From: Cystobasidiomycetes sp. EMM_F5
Lineage: Eukaryota
Length of the DNA: 64,000 bases
Assembly: GCA_051047955.1 (NCBI GenBank)
Contig: JBPGPT010000009.1
Span: 310,001 to 374,000 of the forward strand
Direction of reading: 5' to 3'
Part shown: positions 8,791 to 54,381 of the stretch, piece after piece
Layout: the number at the start of each line of letters is the position of its first letter
Numbering within the stretch: position 1 is the first letter of the stretch
Made by a program: the position numbers and the translations under genes
Notes under the pieces: model-generated
Told to the model about the DNA's origin: nothing
Databases searched by the model: none
Seen by the model: the letters and a program-made list of their open reading frames with translations, nothing else

Positions 8791-11700
8791 ATGCCGCAAT
8801 TCCGACGCCCGTCGGTGCTGGCAGTGAGTGCCTGTTTGTCTGCCGTCTACTAGTGGCGAGAGCAGCTGGCTGACTAGTTCGTCACCCACCCATCCACACC
8901 TCCATCTGCCTCCACCACCATTCATTCCCTACTCTTGTGAAACGGCCATTCCCTACTCCCCTGCTGCCTCCTGTGCACTACCACCAGCCCCTGCGACGCC
9001 TCATACAAACCCACATCCGTCGTGGCAGCAACGCATCCAGTCGTGCATCAACCCCAGAGCGTGGTATACGTAGCGATGCAACCTACCTCACTTATGGCGA
9101 CGGCATCATTGGATCATCTGCCACTTCCCTCCCCTCGTCCGAGTCTAGCATCGACAGCTCTGTACTCGTCTCATCCACTGCATCTGATGCGTCTCAAGCA
9201 GCAATCGTCGACAACAATAACACAGCCTCATTGACACTCATGCCAGCCTTCGAGCAGTCCGTCAACGGTGGCAAACATCAGCAGGATGCACAGTCGCTTC
9301 AGTCGACTAGCGATGTCCGCGCTTTCGTTGACCAGCTACACGGTCCACTCGACGTGCAAGCACTCCTCACTCACACTGTGTTGATGGACCTCACCACTCA
9401 GGCTCCTCGCAACTCCTACGTTCGAGAATGCAATGACATACAAGGCGACGACAAGATTCCGCCAAGCGTACCCTGCAACTCTCTCAACTATGGAATCAAT
9501 CTTCAGATTAGTCGACGGGCCACCGTCATGGATGTCTTCACGACTGATGTACATGACAAATCACACACTCCGAAGGTACCCTTCTCCAGTCCCGTCTCGT
9601 CGATTCACCTCAATCTGTCTCAACCCGCAGTCTCTGTCCGCGACATCGACTTTGTTGAACCCCGTCGTGACTACTCTGACGAAAGCGACTACTCTGATAG
9701 CGTCGAGCTAGTCACGCCTCCTGCTTCGCCTATCACAGCTGTCCACTTCAACTACAGCTTGCCAACAGTCTCCACGGACATCAATGACTACTTACCTGTC
9801 TGTGGCACGTCCGCCAGCATTCAGGTTGAAAAAGCGATGACTGCAGATCCCGACGCATCAGACGTGGCCACCTGCGAGGCAGTCGATACTCCTCATACGA
9901 CTCCACGCACAAACACCCCCGTCTCTGGCCGCACCCCAACTACTCTGCCTGCCATGCCGCTGGACCCCGCATGGCCGCTCACGCAGAGCAAGATACAAGC
10001 ATTGCAATCGAGTAAGAGTCAGAGTAAGAGTGTGGCCAAAGGAGACGCCCCAGGCTATCTGACTCGACACGTCAATCTGGAAAAGCGGGGCAAAGCTCGG
10101 AGTTCCTCACCTGCTACCGCAGTACCACAGATTGAGGTCAAAGCAGTCCAAGCGACAGCTACAGTCATACCGACTACTCCTCGAATGGCTGGCGGCTTTC
10201 GTATCGCGGAAAGTCCGAAAGCAGTCTCTTTCGCTGTAACATCCACTGGGACATCAGGCACATCGCTGGAATTGTCTCCGCAAACTGCCTCGCAGGCATC
10301 TCCAATGTCGGCAACCAAGTATACTACTCCATCCAAAGTGAAGGTTGATGTCGAGTACCCTTCGTCACCATCTCCCGTCGTCCGGCGCCCTAGTGGAAAC
10401 GGTGCGAAATGGTCGACCTACTTCGGAGGAAGCAAAGCATCTCCACTCTCAGCCGCTTCTTCTCCTCTTGTCCCTTCTCCTGGTTTGTCTAGCATTAATG
10501 AAGACAAGGAAGAGGAAGCAAGAATAGATGCGGAGACGCCCTCCACTCCGACTCAAAGGAGAATTGTGACCTCTCACGTCAGGCACAGCTCCTGGAAAGG
10601 CACAAAGGAAGCGATTACCTTTGAACTCTTGTCCCCGAGAAGAGCATCCGCCCTTGGTCATAATGCATCTGTACTGGCTTCCGTCGCTGAAGAAGAGGTT
10701 GTCGAGGATGTTGCGAAACAGGTCGAGGTCCCTCTTCTCAATTGTACAAGCGCAGCAGCCGATGTCTCGAACGATGTGTTTGACGTAAACAACGAAACAG
10801 TAAGTGGATTTACTGGTGTCCTTAAACGGTAGTCTGACCTTTGACACTTTCGACAGCATCTAGAAGTTGAAGTGGAAGGACCGGTCCGAGCTGTCACACC
10901 GACAAACATTGTAGCAAACATTGCTGAGATCGGTCGCCGCTGCCTCCGCCGCGCCAGTACAAACGATCTCAACTTCTTTGGGAAGCTCAACACTCTTCGT
11001 CACCACACAAGCTCGAAGGGTGAGACGTACGACAAGAATGCTGAACAGATTTCCGAGAGAAACTCCTTTGCCATTGAAGGTGACTATAAAGTCGGTATTA
11101 CTCGCGCTATATCGGATGCAAAGATATGGAGCGCAAACACGCAAGAATCAATGGACAGGATTCATAACAACCTCAGCTGTTCTACGAATTCTGACGCAAG
11201 CGTCGGCGACAGTGGTTTTATCGATCAGATACCTCGCTCTCCGGCTAAGATCTACGTACGAGACTTTGCCTACGCAGATCTCGCCCCGCCTCGCAAGCCC
11301 CGAGAGTTCGGCAGATTTCCGATGGATCATATACTCGAGAAATTCACCAAAGGCCAGGCTGCACTAGATCAGGGACGGCATGTCGAGAAGGCTATCAGCC
11401 CCGCTCGCATGACTCCGCCAAGGTCTACTCCTATGTATCGCCGGAAATCATGCGGTGACTTGATGACATCGCCAAGTGCATCATTCGTCTTTGTGACTAC
11501 GGCAGATTATACCCTTGCGAACCAATATTTCTCAGTTACCGGTACAGATGGCATCCAGGCAACTCCGCCGGTCGCGACTCCTACTCGTGGAAATCCTTCG
11601 CCCCGTGCCAAACTGACCAAAAATATTCGACCCAAGACGCCTGTTTCCCCTTCTGAACGAGGTATCGAAGGTCGCAAGACACGCTTGCGTGTAAAGACGT

Positions 11701-11990
11701 CCGCCCTTCGAACTTTGTCCCCGGGTGCCTTCGACGCTGCCGTTGCAGTAAATCGCGGAACGACAGTCCTCAACGCCGCAGATACTCCGACTCGCGCTCA
11801 GGCCACTTACTCCTACACTCCGACCAGAAGTGGGTTTGCTCGCCGCCAGCCGTTAGCGCTTGCTCCGCGCGACACCAACGGAGATCTGACCGTCAGCCCG
11901 TGGATGGTGGTCGCCTCCCAAAGAGTGCTGGCAGAACACCAAGTCGGTGTGCGCCTGTGGGATCGCGCTGTGTCGCAGCAGATGCACTGA
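8791..11990 (+). CDS. Large Ser/Pro/Thr-rich disordered hypothetical protein (3 exons)
   Basis: Exon 1 MPQFRRPSVLA|GTGAGT...CCAG joins the ORF 8937 frame; intron ~10800-10856 joins ORF 10872-11990. Confidence 0.7.
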
Positions 11991-18188: not shown

Positions 18189-20091
18189 ATGGACATCGAC
18201 GAGCGGGTAGCCTCTACGTCTGCAATTCAGCACAAGCATGCACCCCGCTCCGCTTCGACGCCCGCCCTCGCGAGATTCGGTCAGCATCGCTCGTCGTACT
18301 CGGAGGGGCGCAGCAGCAGTGTCGCGCCGTTGCTGGCCAGTCCGACCAGTCAGCACCCTGCAAACGGCTCCGGTTCAAGAAAGGGCAAGGAGAAGGTCGT
18401 CTATGGTGACAGGTCGGTTGAGAATCATCCCGCTTTCCAAGGTTTGGGTCACGTACAGCTCAGCTAATCGTGCGTACATTATTTGCAGGTACATCCCCAG
18501 CAGGAGCGCACTAGACCTCTCTACGCAGTTCAACCTTCTTACCAACGGAGGATCGCAAGCGCCTTCTTCCCCTTCCTCGACCGCCTCGTCCAAGCGGAAA
18601 CTGGCTCGAGGTCCCGAATCCGATGCACAACGAGACGAAGCCAACAAGACGTTCAATGCCTTTCTCCGAAGCGAGCTCTTTGGGACTTCAGCCTCTCAGC
18701 ACACATCTACTGCCCTCGATAATGCGTTTCTAACGCAATCTCCTTCCACGTCGCGGTATGCCGCTGGTAACCCGGCCATGTCGGTAGCGGCATCCCTACC
18801 CACCACACCCACTCGAACAAAGAATCTCTTTACGTATCGAAGTCCGACTCGATCAAGAGCAGGATCATTCAATTCGGCACATGGCAGCGGAAACGCCTTG
18901 CGATCAAGTCAGGGCGATGCAGAGAATAAGACTTTGGATTCACCAACGCACGACCGTTATTCCGCCAGTCCTATCAAATATGAGAATCAGAAACTATTGC
19001 TCAGTCCACGGAAGACACCCAGAACATGGTCAAAAGTGCCATTCAAAGTACTCGATGCTCCCGAACTCGCAGACGATTTCTATCTCAATCTCGTCGACTG
19101 GTCGAGTACAAACATACTGGCAGTTGGGCTAGGAGCGTGTGTGTATCTCTGGTCTGCGCAGACCAGTCGCGTGACGAAGTTGTGTGACTTGGCGGAAATT
19201 AGCGATTCAGTCACTAGTCTCGACTGGGTGCAGCGAGGATCAAAGATTGCCGTGGGAACCAATACTGGCATGGTTCGGATATACGATGCCGAGACTCAGC
19301 AGTTCGAGCGGCAAATGGGCGGTCATACGGCTCGTGTCGGGACACTTGCATGGAACGATTACGTTCTATCTACAGGTTCGCGAGATAGATCAATACTGCA
19401 TCGCGATGTCAGAGAGGCACCACATTCCTTTCGTCGTCTCGTCGGACATCGTCAAGAAGTGTGTGGTCTCAAGTGGTCCCCTTCTGGAACTCAGCTCGCT
19501 AGCGGTGGTAACGATAATAAGCTGCTAGTCTGGGAAGGCTTGAATCCGAGTCCGCTACACCGATTTGCAGATCATATCGCCGCTGTCAAAGCCATCACTT
19601 GGAATACACACCAGCATGGCGTCTTGGCCAGCGGTGGGGGAACGGCAGACAAGAAGATTCGATTCTGGAATACGCTTACTGGCAAACTGCTGTCTGAAGT
19701 TGACACAGGCAGTCAAGTGTGCAGCCTTATGTGGTCCAAGAAGTAGGTTTCTGTCTATGTGTGTGTCGAGAAAAGGGAAAACAAGCTGACCCTCTGTCAC
19801 CTCTGTCTGCGCGATTCCAGTACGAACGAGCTAGTATCTACGCATGGCTTCTCTCAAGCTTCGGCAATCCAGAACCAAGTCTGTGTGTGGAAGTATCCGC
19901 AGATGCAACAGGTTGCTACCCTCACCGGCCATACGACTCGCGTTCTCTACCTCGCCATGTCTCCTGATGGGCAGACCATCGTGACTGGTGCCGGGGACGA
20001 GACTCTGCGGTTCTGGAATGCTTTTGCAAAGGGTAGGATGGACAAGAAGGGAGATGCTGGAGTGCTCAATCCTTTTGGGCAGATTCGGTAG
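18189..20091 (+). CDS. CDH1: APC/C activator Cdh1/Fizzy-related WD40 protein
   Basis: Spliced C-box YGDRYIPSR; LLLSPRK; KVLDAPELADDFYLNLVDWS; WD40 repeats; AGDETLRFW; IR tail. Confidence 0.95.
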
Positions 20092-20324: not shown

Positions 20325-21857
20325 ATGGACGACCTCGCCAGCCTGCAGCGACGTGCTCAAGGCGAGCTTGCTAATGCTAGAGTCCCGCTGTTTCTGCAGT
20401 CTCGAGGGTCCGTGTGGTCGTCTACGCAAAAGCCAATTGCTGCCTTTTCGCTATACGCGTTGGGAATATGGGTGCTCAACAGTATGGGCTTGGGTGGGTA
20501 CTTACTCTTTTGACGTGTTTACGTGAGCTAAAGTCGAATCTCTGAATGCCGTCATTCTACTGGACAGCCCCGAATTTCGGACGTGGAGCGTCATCTCTGA
20601 CATCCATACTCTCAATGATAGTCGGCTTGATGATCTCGTATCGGTAGGCTATAATTTCACGAAGCAAAATGTACACGCTAACGGTAAGACAGGTCTGGCT
20701 CGTCTTCTGACCGCTGGCATGAGGGGCGGCGTATATGGGCAAGCGTGACAAGTTCGCTTCGAGTCCTCATCACCACTCTTCATCTCAGTCTGCCACCCCC
20801 ATCTATGAGAGCGCAGACTGCTAGCGAGCATCAAGCTTCGGTCGACCAGCTGCTGGCACTCTGCGCAGCATACGCCTATGCGCTTAAGTAGGTGCAACCG
20901 TTAGTCACGATCTGTTAGAGCAGTCCTCATTGTCCCCTGCAGGAATCACCTGCGAGACCAGGATGCTCTACGGGATCCCGCTTTCTGCGCCCTGGTCCCG
21001 CAAGCTATCCTGTCTGCATGCGCAGCTACGCCGGCGAGCCAGCGGACTGTACCGCTACAAGGTGTCGACGAAGCAGAGAAATTCAACAGAATCCGGAATG
21101 ATGAAGACGAGGATATCGGTGCACGCCCAAAGAAGGTTGGAGCGACCATATCTGGAGGGCCCCGAAATATGCCGCTATACATCCTAAGACAGATTGTGAG
21201 CGTGCATATTGTACCAGCCGGAGAGAGTGCCGACGTCTATACTTTGTATCTAGCATTCCATGCTCAACAGCTTTCACACAACCTCTGCTCCCTCGGCCGG
21301 TGCGCCGGGAGGTGACAGCCCGCTACTGGAGACTGCTACATGGGCAACAAGCTTGGGTATTTTGAAGGAGATGACTGATCAGCTTTCACAAGCTGAGCGA
21401 ATCAGGTGATTCCTACCAATGCGCACGCACGCGCGAGGCTAACATTTTCTGCATGTGCAGGGACACTCCTATTCCTATCGCACTTGGCATACACGTCCAG
21501 CAGATGTTGGTCCTATACTGCCTCAGCATCCCGCCCCAGCTTGTTGAAATGCTTGGGCTGTGGGTTGTGCCCGTATCGGCTGTGGTGTGAGTCGCGGTTG
21601 CAAGCATGCTTTCGGTCTAGGATACTGAGATGTCTCTACGAAGTGCATGGACATTTTGGGGCGTTGATTCGGCTGCCGCTCAATTATCAGATCCATTTGG
21701 TACAGACAGCAACGACTTGCCAGTCGACCGCTTCGTCAAGAATATTCACGCAGAGTATCTCGAAGTTGTGGGAACTGGAATTACGTCAGGTAGCAATGCC
21801 AACGACGATTTGTTGACGCTTCCATCTGGCATTGGCAGTAGACCTAAAGGAGAGTAG
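20325..21857 (+). CDS. Bestrophin/UPF0187-family anion channel
   Basis: Spliced motifs VGLMISYRSGSSSDRWHEGRRIW, ERIRDTPIP and QLSDPFGTDSNDLPVD. Confidence 0.85.
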
Positions 21858-21932
21858 TGCGGCCAAGTCTACGGGTACTCTGTGGCAGTAGACCTAAAGG
21901 AGAGTAATGCGGCTAAGTCTACGGGTATTCTA
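21833..21932. repeat. Tandem 2 x 50-bp direct repeat spanning the bestrophin stop codon
   Basis: tggcagtagacctaaaggagagta(g/a)tgcggc(c/t)aagtctacgggta(c/t)tct(g/a); 46/50 identical. Confidence 0.95.
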
Positions 21933-22082: not shown

Positions 22083-24265
22083 ATGGCGTTCGTGCCAATG
22101 TACTCTGCTCCGTCCATATGGGACTCCAAGGCGAAGTCCAAACCTGCGCCGTCAGGTTCGGCCAGCAATGCTAGCGGGCAGCGCCGTGGCAGTAATGCAG
22201 GGGCCGCAATCCCGAGTTCTGGAACGGAAAGCAGCTCAGTCGCATCCAGCACTTCGCGAGTTCATTCGGGCTCCCTCAGCGTCCCGAGCAGCCGTCGTAG
22301 CTCCATCGAGCACCACCCGACAGGTCAAACTACCGACTTGGCTCAAATACGAGCTGTCCGAGAAGCTGTCATCAAACGAGATGTGGAAGAGCTGCGGCGA
22401 TTGTCTGTTAAAGGCTTTGTCAATAATGCTATGCGGCGGCTTGTCTGGTACGTGGAGTGCAAGGCTTATTGCTATTTCGATAAAGAACGCTAAACAGTCG
22501 CATCTTTGGTATGTTGTTGTTCTAGGCCGCTAATGCTCAACGTATCTGCATCGTCACTGACTACGATTAAGGAGGAAACGGATGCTGCCAAAAAGGATCA
22601 GAATAATGCTGTCCAGATTCAGCGAGACAGGGACGATGAGCCCGACCGAGATGCTAAACACAAGGACGAATACCAAGTCAAACTAGACATCGACCGCTCA
22701 TTTGTTCACCTGACTTCCGGTGAGACCGGAGCTCTAATTGGCTCCTAACATATCGTTTAACCTCGTATTCTGTACACATAGATGATGAGCGCACGATTCG
22801 GCGGAGACAGCTTTCGCAAATCATAGTCTCTACCCTCCGAGCGCACCCGAGTCTCAATTACTTTCAGGTAAAACGAAGATCTGTGTTCGTATAAGCGAAG
22901 CTGATTGCAATCTTCAGGGATATCACGACATAGTTTCCGTCATCATCCTAGTCTGTGATGACGACACCGAATTAGCAGAGCGTCTGAGCGAGCGCGTCTC
23001 ATTGTATCATATTCGAGATAGTATGCTGTCTTGGCTGGGTCCGACGGTTGGCTATCTAAGGTGCGCATGCTGCTGTCCAGCAAGCGGACAGATATTGATG
23101 CCGTGGTCTTGTAGGTTGCTTAAGAAGATCCTAGAGCAAGCAGATCCCAGCTTGGCCGAGGCGGTCGAAAAGTACGAAACGCTATCTGTCTGCCATGGTG
23201 GTATTACGCTACTGACTGCACGCGCAGGGCCTCTTCAATACCTTACTTCTCAATATCTTGGGTACTAACCCTCTTTGCCCATGATATCACCTCTATCGAG
23301 GTTACTGCCAGGGTCTTTGACTTTCTTCTAGCTCACAATCCTGCAATGGTCTCGTACCTCTGCGCTGCTGTATGTATGTGCTTCCCGAATCAAAGCAACG
23401 GCTAACACGAGACGAGACGCAGATTGTTATTGCGAAGAAGAATGCACTGTCAGAGCTAGATCCTGATATTGCCAATGACCCTGCTACCGTTCATACTGTA
23501 TTGTCAAAACTGCCCAAGTTGTCAGTCGATCTGCCTAGTCGTCCCTCCTCCGTCTCGACAACGCCGAACAAGGCAAACTCTCCCAGACCGACCAACGTCG
23601 TCAACCCTGGTGATGCCATTGCTTCTGCATTCACGGCTCTGGCAAATCTACTGGATCAGCCTGTATCGAGCGTGGGCATGCATTCACGAACTTCTAGCGT
23701 CAACAGTTCGGGCTTTATCGACTTATCTGAGTCGGCTGACGGAGTCCACCCATCACATTCCCCGCGAACCCGCAAGCCAGCTGATCAGCCGCTGTACCTC
23801 AATGACCTATTTGCCAAAGCTGTGTACCTATACGCGCAATTCCCTCTTGATCATTCTGGAGTGAATGCGTCAAGCATATTCGGTCCTCAGAGTGCTGTCT
23901 TCACTTGGGGCAAAACAACACTTTCCAATACGGAGGCAGAACAGATTGTTGCTCAGGGAACCGACGTAATTATGCCAGACCCAGAAGAGGAGGAGAAGAG
24001 GAGGCAAGACAGCGAGGAGAAAAGGAAGAAGGACGAACAATCACGGAAACTATTGCGCAAGGCTGGAAAGGTACCGTTACACCGGCTACTGTATGCCTTG
24101 CAACAAGTCGGTATCTCACAATCAACAGCTGTGCTGATACTGGCTGGCATGGCTGGCATTATGCTGGCGACATATGCAACGAAAGATGGCAGCGTTCTCT
24201 ACACAAATACGAAGATCTGGCTGCGCCAGTCGTGGATTGTACGTCTTGCATTGGGTAACTTATGA
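22083..24265 (+). CDS. GYP8: TBC-domain Rab GAP, Gyp8/TBC1D20 family, with a C-terminal TM helix (possible readthrough to 24505)
   Basis: GFVNNAMRRLVW; QVKLDIDRSF (R finger); YFQ|GYHDI (Q finger); WVLTLFAHD; TM segment AVLILAGMAGIMLATY. Confidence 0.88.
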
Positions 24266-24559
24266 CTAGCACTGGCGAAGCGGGCCCATAAGTTCTCTCT
24301 CCTGCGAAACAAGCTTAATCAAGCTATTCGGCAAAGACAGTCGAAGCAGGAAGCGGAGAACCGCCTCGCCTCCGTTCTGGCGGAGTCTGGCGTTGCTCTA
24401 ATGAGCGACGACCGTACAGATGCGGACCTCGAGACTGGTGATAGCTCACCAAGCGTATACAGCATAGAAAGTCGCGTCATTACACCTGAACCTCCGTGGA
24501 TGTAGCGATACAATCAAGTGTGTAGATTAATTGCAACGGTATTGCTATGAAAAAAAACC

Positions 24560-25768
24560 TCATATAGTAGCGATACTGATCGGTCTCTGCTCGTCTATAC
24601 TCATAAAGAAGGCCTCGATTATCTGTACTGCGCGCAACCCATCATAACCGCTGCATCTCGGCTCCTCCTGACCTCTGATGACGCGTACGAAGTGTTCGCA
24701 TTGTGCAGTATATGGATCGTGCATATCGACGCGCATCGGCTTGTCTGCCTGCAGCGGTTTCATCCAATTACCCGAGCCCTCATGCGAGTCGTGATGCCAA
24801 CGCTTCAGCTCTGGGACAGCCAAGCTACCGTTCGTGCCGATAACATGGTAGATATTCTGTCCGGCGAGAGGAAAGTGTACACTCTCTCCTGTTGCCTGCT
24901 CCCATGTCCAAGGTGATGTGCCAACACTAGTGTGGAAGAATGAGACCACTCAGTAGGCGAAGCGCCGCGCAGCATTCAGTCCATCGGACTCACTCTGTCA
25001 TTACAAAAGTTCCTACCGCCCCGTTGGCCATACTGAACACCACTGCTACTGTTTCTTCTGCTTCGAAACCTCGCGTTCTAGGGCCCACCTCGACATACAC
25101 TTTGACGATTTCACTCATCATGACGTATCTCACAGCATCAACCTCGTGAATCATGTTGATCAAGAGCTTTGCAAAGTATTTCCCAGCTTAGCAATCACAT
25201 TCGAGCCTAAATGCAAATCCCATCAACTTACAGGTCCTCCACTTTTAAATTGACGCCGCCATTCAGCGTCAAAGTACGGTAAAGGTTTCTTTGTTGCCCA
25301 AATTCCGCTGTAAGCGATCAATTTCCCGAGGTTGCCAGTCTCCACTGCTGCTTTTGCTGCCGTCAAGTATGGATTGAAGCGACGGTGATGCCCCACCATG
25401 AGTTTCGCATTGCCTTCAGCCGCGGCTTGCAACAAGAGTTTTCCACTCTCCGTATCAATGGAGACGGGCTTCTCGATAATGCAGTGTATACCAGCTTTGA
25501 GTAGCATTACGCCAAGCGGGACGTGCGTAGCGTTTGGCGTAGCAACTATGGCCGCGTCAATACGTATACCAGCAGACATCATGTCGTCGTAGGAAGCGAA
25601 ACAGGGAATGTCATGCTTGGCTCCCAATGCAGTACCAGCTGGCGTAGGGTCGATAAAAGCTACCAGATTCAGATCCGGGGTAGCCAGAGCTGCTTTGACG
25701 TGGACGAGACCAATGAGTCCCGCTGCACCGAAAACGACGAGATTAATTCGGGAGGTTTCGTTAGTCAT
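24560..25768 (-). CDS. Gfo/Idh/MocA oxidoreductase
   Basis: GAAGLIGLVH, IVATPNATH, IEKPVS, VGHHRRFNP, GGP|LLINMIHEVD, SPWTWEQATGE. Confidence 0.92.
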
Positions 25769-26031
25769 GTTAGCTGTGTTAGAGCGGATGAGAGCTGGCC
25801 ATTAGCCTTAGATTTCCACTACTACAGTATACTGCAATGCCAATGCCGCAAGAATAGGGGCACTCCTTGATCTATTCTGCCGTCGCTTTTTGGTTTCTCG
25901 CGTTGCTGACTCGCTGGCACACGTTGCTTATGAGTGACGTTTACGCTACGATACGAGCTCGAGATGTGTGAACTTTTAGCAAATATGTTGGACAGTTTCG
26001 AAGAAAACCGGTTCCAGTCGTCGGCGCCCGA

Positions 26032-53769: not shown

Positions 53770-54381
53770 ATGTCGTCGCTTATCGGACAAACAGCTCCGT
53801 CCTTTGGCCCCCTGCAAGACGAGAATGGCCAATCTTTTGATCTGTCGTCATACTACGGCAAACAAGCGCTATGCATATTCTTCTATCCCGCTGCAATGAC
53901 TTACGGTGCGTGTATGAAACGTCGCCATTCGCACTCTGCCGTTTTGACATTCTTATAAAACCCAAAGGCTGTACCAAAGAAGCATGCTCTATGCGTGACA
54001 TATCGTCCAAACCGACCTTCACAAATATCGATAGCACAAAGACCCTCCGTATTGTCGGCATCTCCGGGGACCCAGTCTCCAAATTGCGACAGTTTGTAGA
54101 TAAGCATAACCTCAATTTTACGTTACTATCGGATCAAGACGAAGTTGCGCGCAAGGCCTTTGGCGTGTCTGGCAGTGTTTTGTTTGGTCTAGTCAAACGT
54201 ATGTCTGTACTTCCCTGGTCCCATCCATATCTGAACCTGTTATCCAGAACGAGTCACTTTCATCATCGACGACAAGGGAATTGTGCGCGATAGCGAAGAC
54301 AGCTCAGTGAATATGAGCAAACACGGCGCTCTGCTGGAGAAGTGGGTACAGAAATTCGCGTCGGATGCTCCTGCAGCATAG
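53770..54381 (+). CDS. BCP/PrxQ peroxiredoxin (Dot5-like)
   Basis: FFYPAAMTY|GCTKEACSMRD (PxxxTxxC plus resolving Cys); VGISGD; LLSD; RVTFIID. Confidence 0.92.

Follow-up and report, generated by a model that had tools for sequence, protein, structure and literature searches.

The 64,000-nucleotide (nt) stretch of DNA analyzed here (the window; contig JBPGPT010000009.1 of Cystobasidiomycetes sp. EMM_F5, assembly GCA_051047955.1, forward-strand positions 310,001 to 374,000) carries a predicted gene for a tail-anchored Rab GTPase-activating protein (RabGAP) of the TBC1D20/Gyp8 type, whose TGA stop codon is directly followed by CTAG. In the mRNA this is the UGA CUA G context of known readthrough genes. 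Behind the stop the reading frame stays open for a further 79 codons, with the codon usage of an exon, and the stop itself stands at a position shared with distant relatives. From this we infer readthrough in the organism, an mRNA that extends past position 24505 and selection for the longer isoform. Whether the gene yields such a readthrough isoform we judge to be an evenly balanced question, and this is the explanation that we favor.

Stop codon context, open frame and codon usage

Positions 24260–24271 read TTA TGA CTA GCA. This sequence, and the 79 open codons leading to a TAG at 24503–24505, had been described in an earlier note on this DNA; both were confirmed, with an identical translation. 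The chance of such an open frame, put at ~2% in that note, is close to the result of dinucleotide-preserving shuffling of the 237 nt, in which 493 of 20000 sequences (2.5%) were stop-free in frame. The TGACTAG heptamer is not enriched in the window (4 sites on both strands versus 6.96 expected), and the copy at 24263 is the only one of the four that forms the stop of a gene. Of the other copies, one (8871) is situated in what resembles an intron, ahead of a long open reading frame (ORF), and two (9708 and 54189, both on the minus strand) are antisense within coding ORFs of the plus strand.

The most direct alternative is that 24266–24505 is an ordinary 3′ untranslated region (3′UTR), stop-free by luck behind a TGA-CTAG, and that any product would be functionless noise, possibly cleared by quality control. 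We regard this as possible but rather doubtful. The shuffling result speaks for it, as does the fact that 302 of the 4289 stop-to-stop ORFs of the window reach at least 79 codons; the lack of enrichment of the heptamer and the origin of the candidate in a scan of very many windows point the same way. A 3′UTR of at least 240 nt overlapping the 3′ end of a convergent gene is unremarkable in fungi, which also counts for chance.

The codon usage of the extension bears directly on this alternative. A codon log-odds score was trained on 21 other long ORFs (7386 codons) against the trinucleotide background of the window. In frame, the extension obtained 0.137 bits per codon, compared to a mean of 0.140 (sd 0.090) for in-frame 79-codon windows of coding sequence. 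Off-frame windows gave a mean of -0.28, none of them reaching 0.137, and the five other frames of the extension itself scored between -0.18 and -0.38. When only sense codons were scored, which removes the trivial effect of having no stops, the value for the extension (0.088) was the same as that of the last exon of the RabGAP gene (0.088), which had been outside the training set; exon 2 of this gene scored just under 0.088. Scores of at least 0.088 were found for 7 of the 364 stop-free ORFs of 60–110 codons present in the six frames of the window (the extension being counted among the seven) and for 1.0% of the stop-free shuffles of the extension.

When this score was separated into its two components, the amino-acid part amounted to 0.067 (14 of the 364 ORFs score at least as high; coding mean 0.078) and the synonymous part to 0.021 (39 of the 364 ORFs; coding mean 0.012), and both parts are on the coding side. 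At the three codon positions the extension has a GC content of 0.63/0.46/0.56, versus 0.56/0.45/0.51 in the last exon, and it is only directly after the TAG that the GC content falls, from 0.55 to 0.33 (54 nt). In these respects the extension looks like coding sequence in the frame of the stop, and its earlier description as protein-like is borne out by exon-like codon usage in the right frame. These results argue against chance: the codon score equals the median for real coding windows, the codon-position GC resembles that of the exon, AT-rich sequence begins only past the TAG, and the motif, the open frame and the codon score would, for any one gene, be very improbable jointly.

A comparison across the window gave a similar picture. 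In the 240 nt following the stop, the RabGAP gene has the highest in-frame score among 22 long ORFs, and the higher values observed in other frames behind those 22 stops correspond to apparent following exons. Other long post-stop frames (118 and 114 codons) were not taken as a null.

Several points nevertheless weigh against readthrough. The codon score is uneven when the extension is divided into thirds (-0.016, 0.157 and 0.134), and the neutral value of the first third is what would be expected by chance; the true transmembrane (TM) and tail region of the RabGAP is equally weak at this scale. Six other short ORFs score as high as the extension (some of these may be real exons), and the synonymous part taken alone is weak, with 39 of the 364 ORFs reaching it. 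Moreover, these are statistics from a single genome for a candidate that emerged from a very large scan, and a chance coincidence is possible. One sequence variant was found in the extension, a T>C change at 24415 in a phyllosphere-metagenome contig (run X3, depth 3), which is silent (CGT>CGC) when read in the frame of the extension; as a single site it carries no weight.

Some observations concern the other ORFs mentioned above. The plus-strand TGACTAG at 8871–8877 is situated in an apparent short first intron (ATG at 8791, GTGAGT at 8824, then CTGAC followed by TAG), and the exon phases around 8791–8880, judged by eye, do not match the long ORF 8874–10832. The latter and ORF 10845–11990 are in the same frame, with a ~57-nt GTAAGT...CAG intron between them that holds the TAG; this pair (10800–10856) indicates that in-frame post-stop ORFs of this genome are often merely introns. 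Of the 118- and 114-codon post-stop frames, at least the one at 19746 seems to reflect a GTAGGT donor and not a true stop. By eye, the ORF translations at 53841–54381 (plus strand) resemble an intron-split peroxiredoxin-like (AhpC/TSA-like) gene.

Identity of the gene and age of the stop

The gene model was drawn by eye from GT..YAG introns and gave a single open coding sequence of 1830 nt. The features of the region are compiled in Table 1. The six introns are 50–78 nt long, and all of them are GT..YAG. The ORF over exon 6 matches the Pfam family RabGAP-TBC (PF00566) with 27.5 bits, against a cut-off of 25.2; the domain is split across exons and this score covers only part of it. The spliced translation contains the sequences LDIDRSF and YFQGYHD, which we take to be the Arg-finger (IxxDxxR) and Gln-finger (YxQ) motifs of TBC GAPs.

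Table 1. Coordinates of the RabGAP gene, its proposed extension and the adjacent features in the window.
Feature	Position	Strand	Details
TBC1D20/Gyp8-type RabGAP gene (predicted)	22083-24265	+	7 exons, product 609 aa
RabGAP gene exons	22083-22447, 22526-22719, 22782-22867, 22918-23060, 23115-23171, 23228-23369, 23423-24265	+	
Transmembrane segment	24122-24181	+	hydrophobic, single; STAVLILAGMAGIMLATYAT
Post-TM tail	24182-24262	+	27 aa, conserved, ends WLRQSWIVRLALGNL; alignment of 8 sequences
GTACGT, donor-like	24239-24244	+	candidate 5′ splice site; codons Val-Arg, phase 0
TGA stop followed by CTAG	24263-24269	+	UGA CUA G context
In-frame extension	24266-24502	+	79 sense codons
Next in-frame stop	24503-24505	+	TAG
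AT-rich spacer	24506-24559	.	54 nt, GC 0.33, A8 run; extension TAG to convergent stop
GFO/IDH/MocA-type oxidoreductase gene, convergent	24560-25801	-	stop 24560-24562

A full-length relative (P0015) matches the last exon of the window gene with an E value of 5.9e-14, and its only PDB matches are TBC1D20 chains (4hl4 and 4hlq, E 1e-40). Through this protein, and thus indirectly, TBC1D20 appears to be the closest characterized relative of the window RabGAP. The TM segment is the sole region with a Kyte-Doolittle 19-residue mean above 1.0 in the last 100 amino acids (aa) and the extension, and it is helical in an AlphaFold2 (AF2) model. Followed by 27 aa, it gives the canonical product the form of a tail-anchored protein (one TM within ~30–40 residues of the C-terminus), whereas an extended isoform, with 107 aa after the TM, would no longer have this form. 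The earlier note had named the gene a C-terminally anchored Gyp8/TBC1D20 RabGAP and had estimated that its post-TM tail would grow from ~30 to ~110 aa. Given the Pfam domain, the TBC1D20 structures matched by P0015 and the one C-terminal TM, the label of a putative tail-anchored TBC1D20/Gyp8-type RabGAP stands, and the computed lengths agree with the estimate. The target of this GAP family is presumably Rab1/Ypt1.

Phmmer was used to search 1.84 billion representatives with the last exon plus the extension, in which the TGA was translated as W; it returned 159 matches at E <= 0.001 (150 listed). The closest matches are raw ORFs of genomic or metagenomic contigs, some of which run straight through introns. 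Seven relatives (P0002–P0007 and P0009; 32–47% identity) were aligned to the last exon, and in all seven the ORF ends in the same alignment column as the stop of the window gene. The aligned tails share the pattern W....W[IL][VILM]R..LG[KN]L before the stop, with W266 and W271 invariant, and align through the last residue in 8 of 8 sequences. The common end column in the seven relatives indicates that the stop is ancient and that the sequence up to it is coding. Judged by this alignment, the position of the stop is old and real, and the short-tailed canonical protein is the conserved main product.

These data bear on the possibility that the TGA reflects an error in sequencing, or a nonsense mutation of recent origin in a protein normally of ~689 aa. 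The coding-like appearance of the extension would fit such an artefact or lesion, but the seven aligned relatives end exactly at the stop column and 15 full-length relatives do not have an extension-like tail. In addition, a contig of a second run (X2) covers 24020–24270 with 0 differences and has the same TGA, although this run may be the source of the assembly itself and thus perhaps not independent. An artefact or recent nonsense allele, which the earlier note had listed as a way in which its proposal could fail, appears to be essentially refuted by the conserved stop column; we give it next to no credence.

The comparison with relatives also supplied further points against readthrough. The relatives are distant (in a search of 5.8 billion clusters, the nearest relatives of the last exon showed 48%, 42% and 31% identity), and they are raw ORFs that end at a stop codon. 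The extension (query residues 282–360) is covered by none of the 150 listed of the 159 phmmer matches, one of which reaches residue 287. Searched alone among longer proteins, it gave nothing at E <= 0.1, and no match was found among 151 relative proteins (best E 0.17). This absence of a homologue in the extension searches is also what chance would predict.

An ESM Atlas search with the extension gave no usable match. The last exon found no match among longer proteins, where such matches were probably crowded out. A tail resembling the extension is absent from 15 of 15 full-length relatives, whose post-TM tails, by reading, range from ~17 to ~70 aa. A search of metagenome contigs using the alignment yielded 64 pattern matches, of which 0 were relatives, and a metagenome search with a degenerate pattern encoding the conserved peptide DPAT.HT.L.K.P had 0 matches. 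Comparison of four DNA runs with the stretch identified six same-species fragments of 151–251 nt with 0–2 differences each; these leave parts of the stretch uncovered, including 24452–24949. Short identical fragments of the stretch were also seen to occur in phyllosphere metagenome runs. On the whole, the organism appears to have been little sampled.

Downstream of the RabGAP gene is a convergent gene whose product matches PF01408 (E 1.3e-22) and PF02894 (E 1.1e-07), the latter match ending at profile position 217 of 218 and residue 125 of 129. The stop of this gene is located 294 nt from the RabGAP stop and 54 nt from the TAG of the extension, and the spacer at 24506–24559 is likely a shared 3′-end region. 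On the upstream side, a 50-nt unit is duplicated in tandem at 21833–21931 (2.0 copies, 93% matches), ~150 nt before the RabGAP start codon, in what is likely the promoter or 5′UTR.

Splicing and editing as other possible routes to an extended C-terminus

Besides leaky termination, a facultative in-frame intron could produce a similar C-terminus, and the GTACGT at 24239 with its in-frame CAG acceptors therefore counts against readthrough as another route to the same end. Splicing from this site would drop the last 8 codons together with the stop and join ...RQSWI to the distal part of the extension frame. The candidate acceptors are CAG at 24340 and 24349 (introns of 102 and 111 nt) and AAG at 24280, 24292 and 24313 (42–75 nt). 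The donor-like hexamer is the same as the donor of RabGAP intron 1 and is at phase 0; several acceptors are in frame, those with CAG being preceded by a TTCTCTCTCCT tract and by a TTAAT that resembles a branch site, and the coding-like signal is mostly in the distal two thirds of the extension. Alternative splicing that yields alternative C-termini is known in fungi and is mentioned in the introduction of PMC4207609.

We nevertheless consider splicing of this kind quite improbable. The segment from the donor to the stop, VRLALGNL, is conserved as protein in relatives (the V/I/L/M-R pair at the donor itself in 6 of 7), so the main product is the unspliced form. The donors of the six RabGAP introns are degenerate, and a donor-like hexamer near the stop is therefore a weak coincidence. 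These introns are 50–78 nt long with YAG ends, and a pyrimidine-rich stretch precedes four of the six acceptors; the acceptors proposed for the alternative intron, by contrast, are purine-rich or AAG. Splicing would also leave the TGA-CTAG and the open first 25 codons as coincidences, and no joint was seen, the contigs at hand being DNA only. A constitutive intron across the stop was ruled out, since conservation at the protein level extends up to the stop.

The stop could also be removed in the RNA, through A-to-I editing that turns UGA into UGG or through other recoding, and an open, coding-like extension would be compatible with this too. Sexual-stage transcripts of some filamentous ascomycetes undergo such editing; an A after G is a disfavored context for it in fungi, which counts against this explanation. 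The stop-converting editing events described in the part of PMC4817773 available to us changed UAG stops, and editing would leave the CTAG context unexplained. We hold this route to be extremely unlikely.

The predicted isoform and known readthrough systems

On the readthrough explanation, the normal product would be the 609-aa tail-anchored RabGAP ending ...LALGNL at the conserved UGA. At the leaky UGA CUA G, a fraction of ribosomes would decode the UGA by a near-cognate tRNA, the residue inserted at UGA being W, R or C, and would continue for 79 codons to the UAG at 24503–05. The outcome would be a 689-aa isoform with 107 instead of 27 aa behind the TM, whose tail would consist of a long basic helix prolonging the tail helix, followed by a disordered, acidic end rich in Ser and Pro. 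A degree of readthrough at 24263 is to be expected if ribosomes behave here as in other UGA-CU systems, and the open frame with its exon-like character points to a product that is tolerated or under selection.

The first ~45 aa of the extension are basic and predicted to be helical, and the last 34 aa are acidic and Ser/Pro-rich (net charge +8 in the first 27 aa and -6 in the last 34 aa). In a single-sequence AF2 model, the post-TM tail, the stop position and ~40 aa of the extension form one continuous helix, with a predicted local distance difference test (pLDDT) score of 80–91; the last ~39 aa are disordered. The extension ends PEPPWM. It is thus without a tripeptide like that of the type 1 peroxisomal targeting signal (PTS1), as had been claimed previously, and without any recognizable targeting signal, which is a further point against the readthrough explanation. 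Of the features that characterize UGA-CUA(G) readthrough genes, the window gene has the motif with G at +4, the open extension and a coding signature within a single genome; a recognizable functional signal in the extension is absent.

No Pfam family above cut-off was found on the extension, and sub-threshold matches to CRF and pPIWI_RE_X were taken as chance. A reading of SVYSIES, by eye, as an FFAT-like motif was dropped as too weak. The RNA of 24263–24382 (120 nt) was predicted to fold with -42.6 kcal/mol (z = -2.38; 2 of 200 shuffles are at least as stable). This result is marginal, and as a readthrough stimulator the fold was given no weight. Its pairing starts right after the stop, unlike classical spaced stem-loops.

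The known UGA-CUA readthrough targets of fungi are soluble metabolic enzymes to which a PTS1 is added. In Ustilago maydis, the extensions that expose this signal are short. The window extension is unlike those of the U. maydis targets, as it is 79 aa long, ends PWM and is attached to a membrane-anchored RabGAP. In U. maydis a peroxisomal isoform of GAPDH likewise provides a second C-terminus from one gene, but via a splice junction. The window gene is like U. maydis Tpi1, Pgk1, Rpe1 and Art1 (Stiebler et al. 2014, PMC4207609) in having TGA CTA, in those genes often with G at +4. In the U. maydis genes, one and the same mRNA also yields a minor isoform with a longer C-terminus, whereas for the window gene this is only proposed. 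According to the sections of PMC4207609 available to us, a UGA with CU behind it is enough for efficient readthrough in U. maydis, and the motif is also active in HeLa cells; readthrough is further stimulated by A at +3, G at +4 is common and important, and selenocysteine machinery is absent from fungi. The available text of PMC12233894 terms UGA CUA G ‘the high-TR motif’. The claim of the earlier note that UGA-CUA(G) is efficient in fungi and animals is thus consistent with what these two sources report for U. maydis and human cells.

The 7-nt UGA CUA G of the mammalian genes LDHB and MDH1 is identical to the window motif. This context also occurs in further mammalian readthrough genes such as AQP4 and OPRL1. 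The basal readthrough given in the available parts of the respective papers ranges from ~1% for LDHB (PMC4207609) to ~4% for MDH1 (PMC5133446). The mammalian cases come from animals and are backed by conservation, reporters and protein detection, whereas the window case is a candidate recognized from sequence. With TBC1D20 and yeast Gyp8, the window gene has in common the TBC domain, the Arg and Gln finger motifs, a single C-terminal TM and a short tail.

The earlier note knew of no description of readthrough for this family. Literature searches combining ‘readthrough’ with ‘Gyp8’ and ‘stop codon readthrough’ with ‘TBC1D20’ likewise found no paper, subscription-only papers being outside their scope. 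Among the titles and beginnings of abstracts listed for ‘tail-anchored’ and ‘translational readthrough’, within the same scope, none reports that a tail-anchored protein undergoes readthrough; in one of these papers, PMC4667187, the term appears only among the references. The seven text files of supplementary tables available for PMC4207609 contain no entry for TBC, GYP, Rab or GTPase. If real, the window gene would be an unusual class of target with an unusually long extension for UGA-CUA(G) readthrough.

From what is known of tail-anchored proteins it is reasonable to speculate that the change in tail length alters the insertion route or the destination of the RabGAP. A more specific proposal is a biogenesis switch, in which the 27-aa tail permits post-translational tail-anchor insertion into the endoplasmic reticulum, while the 107-aa form, with its +8 helix at the membrane, would no longer be a substrate. 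The long isoform would then be inserted co-translationally or sent elsewhere, forming a minor pool of Rab1/Ypt1 GAP at a second site. We consider this switch unlikely; if true, it would be both the first case in which readthrough controls a change in the route of membrane insertion and the first UGA-CUAG target in fungi that acts by means other than a PTS1.

If the extension were noise, it would be a calibrated example of single-genome codon statistics being misleading. If readthrough is true, TGA>TGG and TGA>TAA alleles would provide a simple handle on how tail length and charge relate to insertion route and location, and a membrane-traffic regulator with a long, PTS1-free extension would widen the uses of readthrough.

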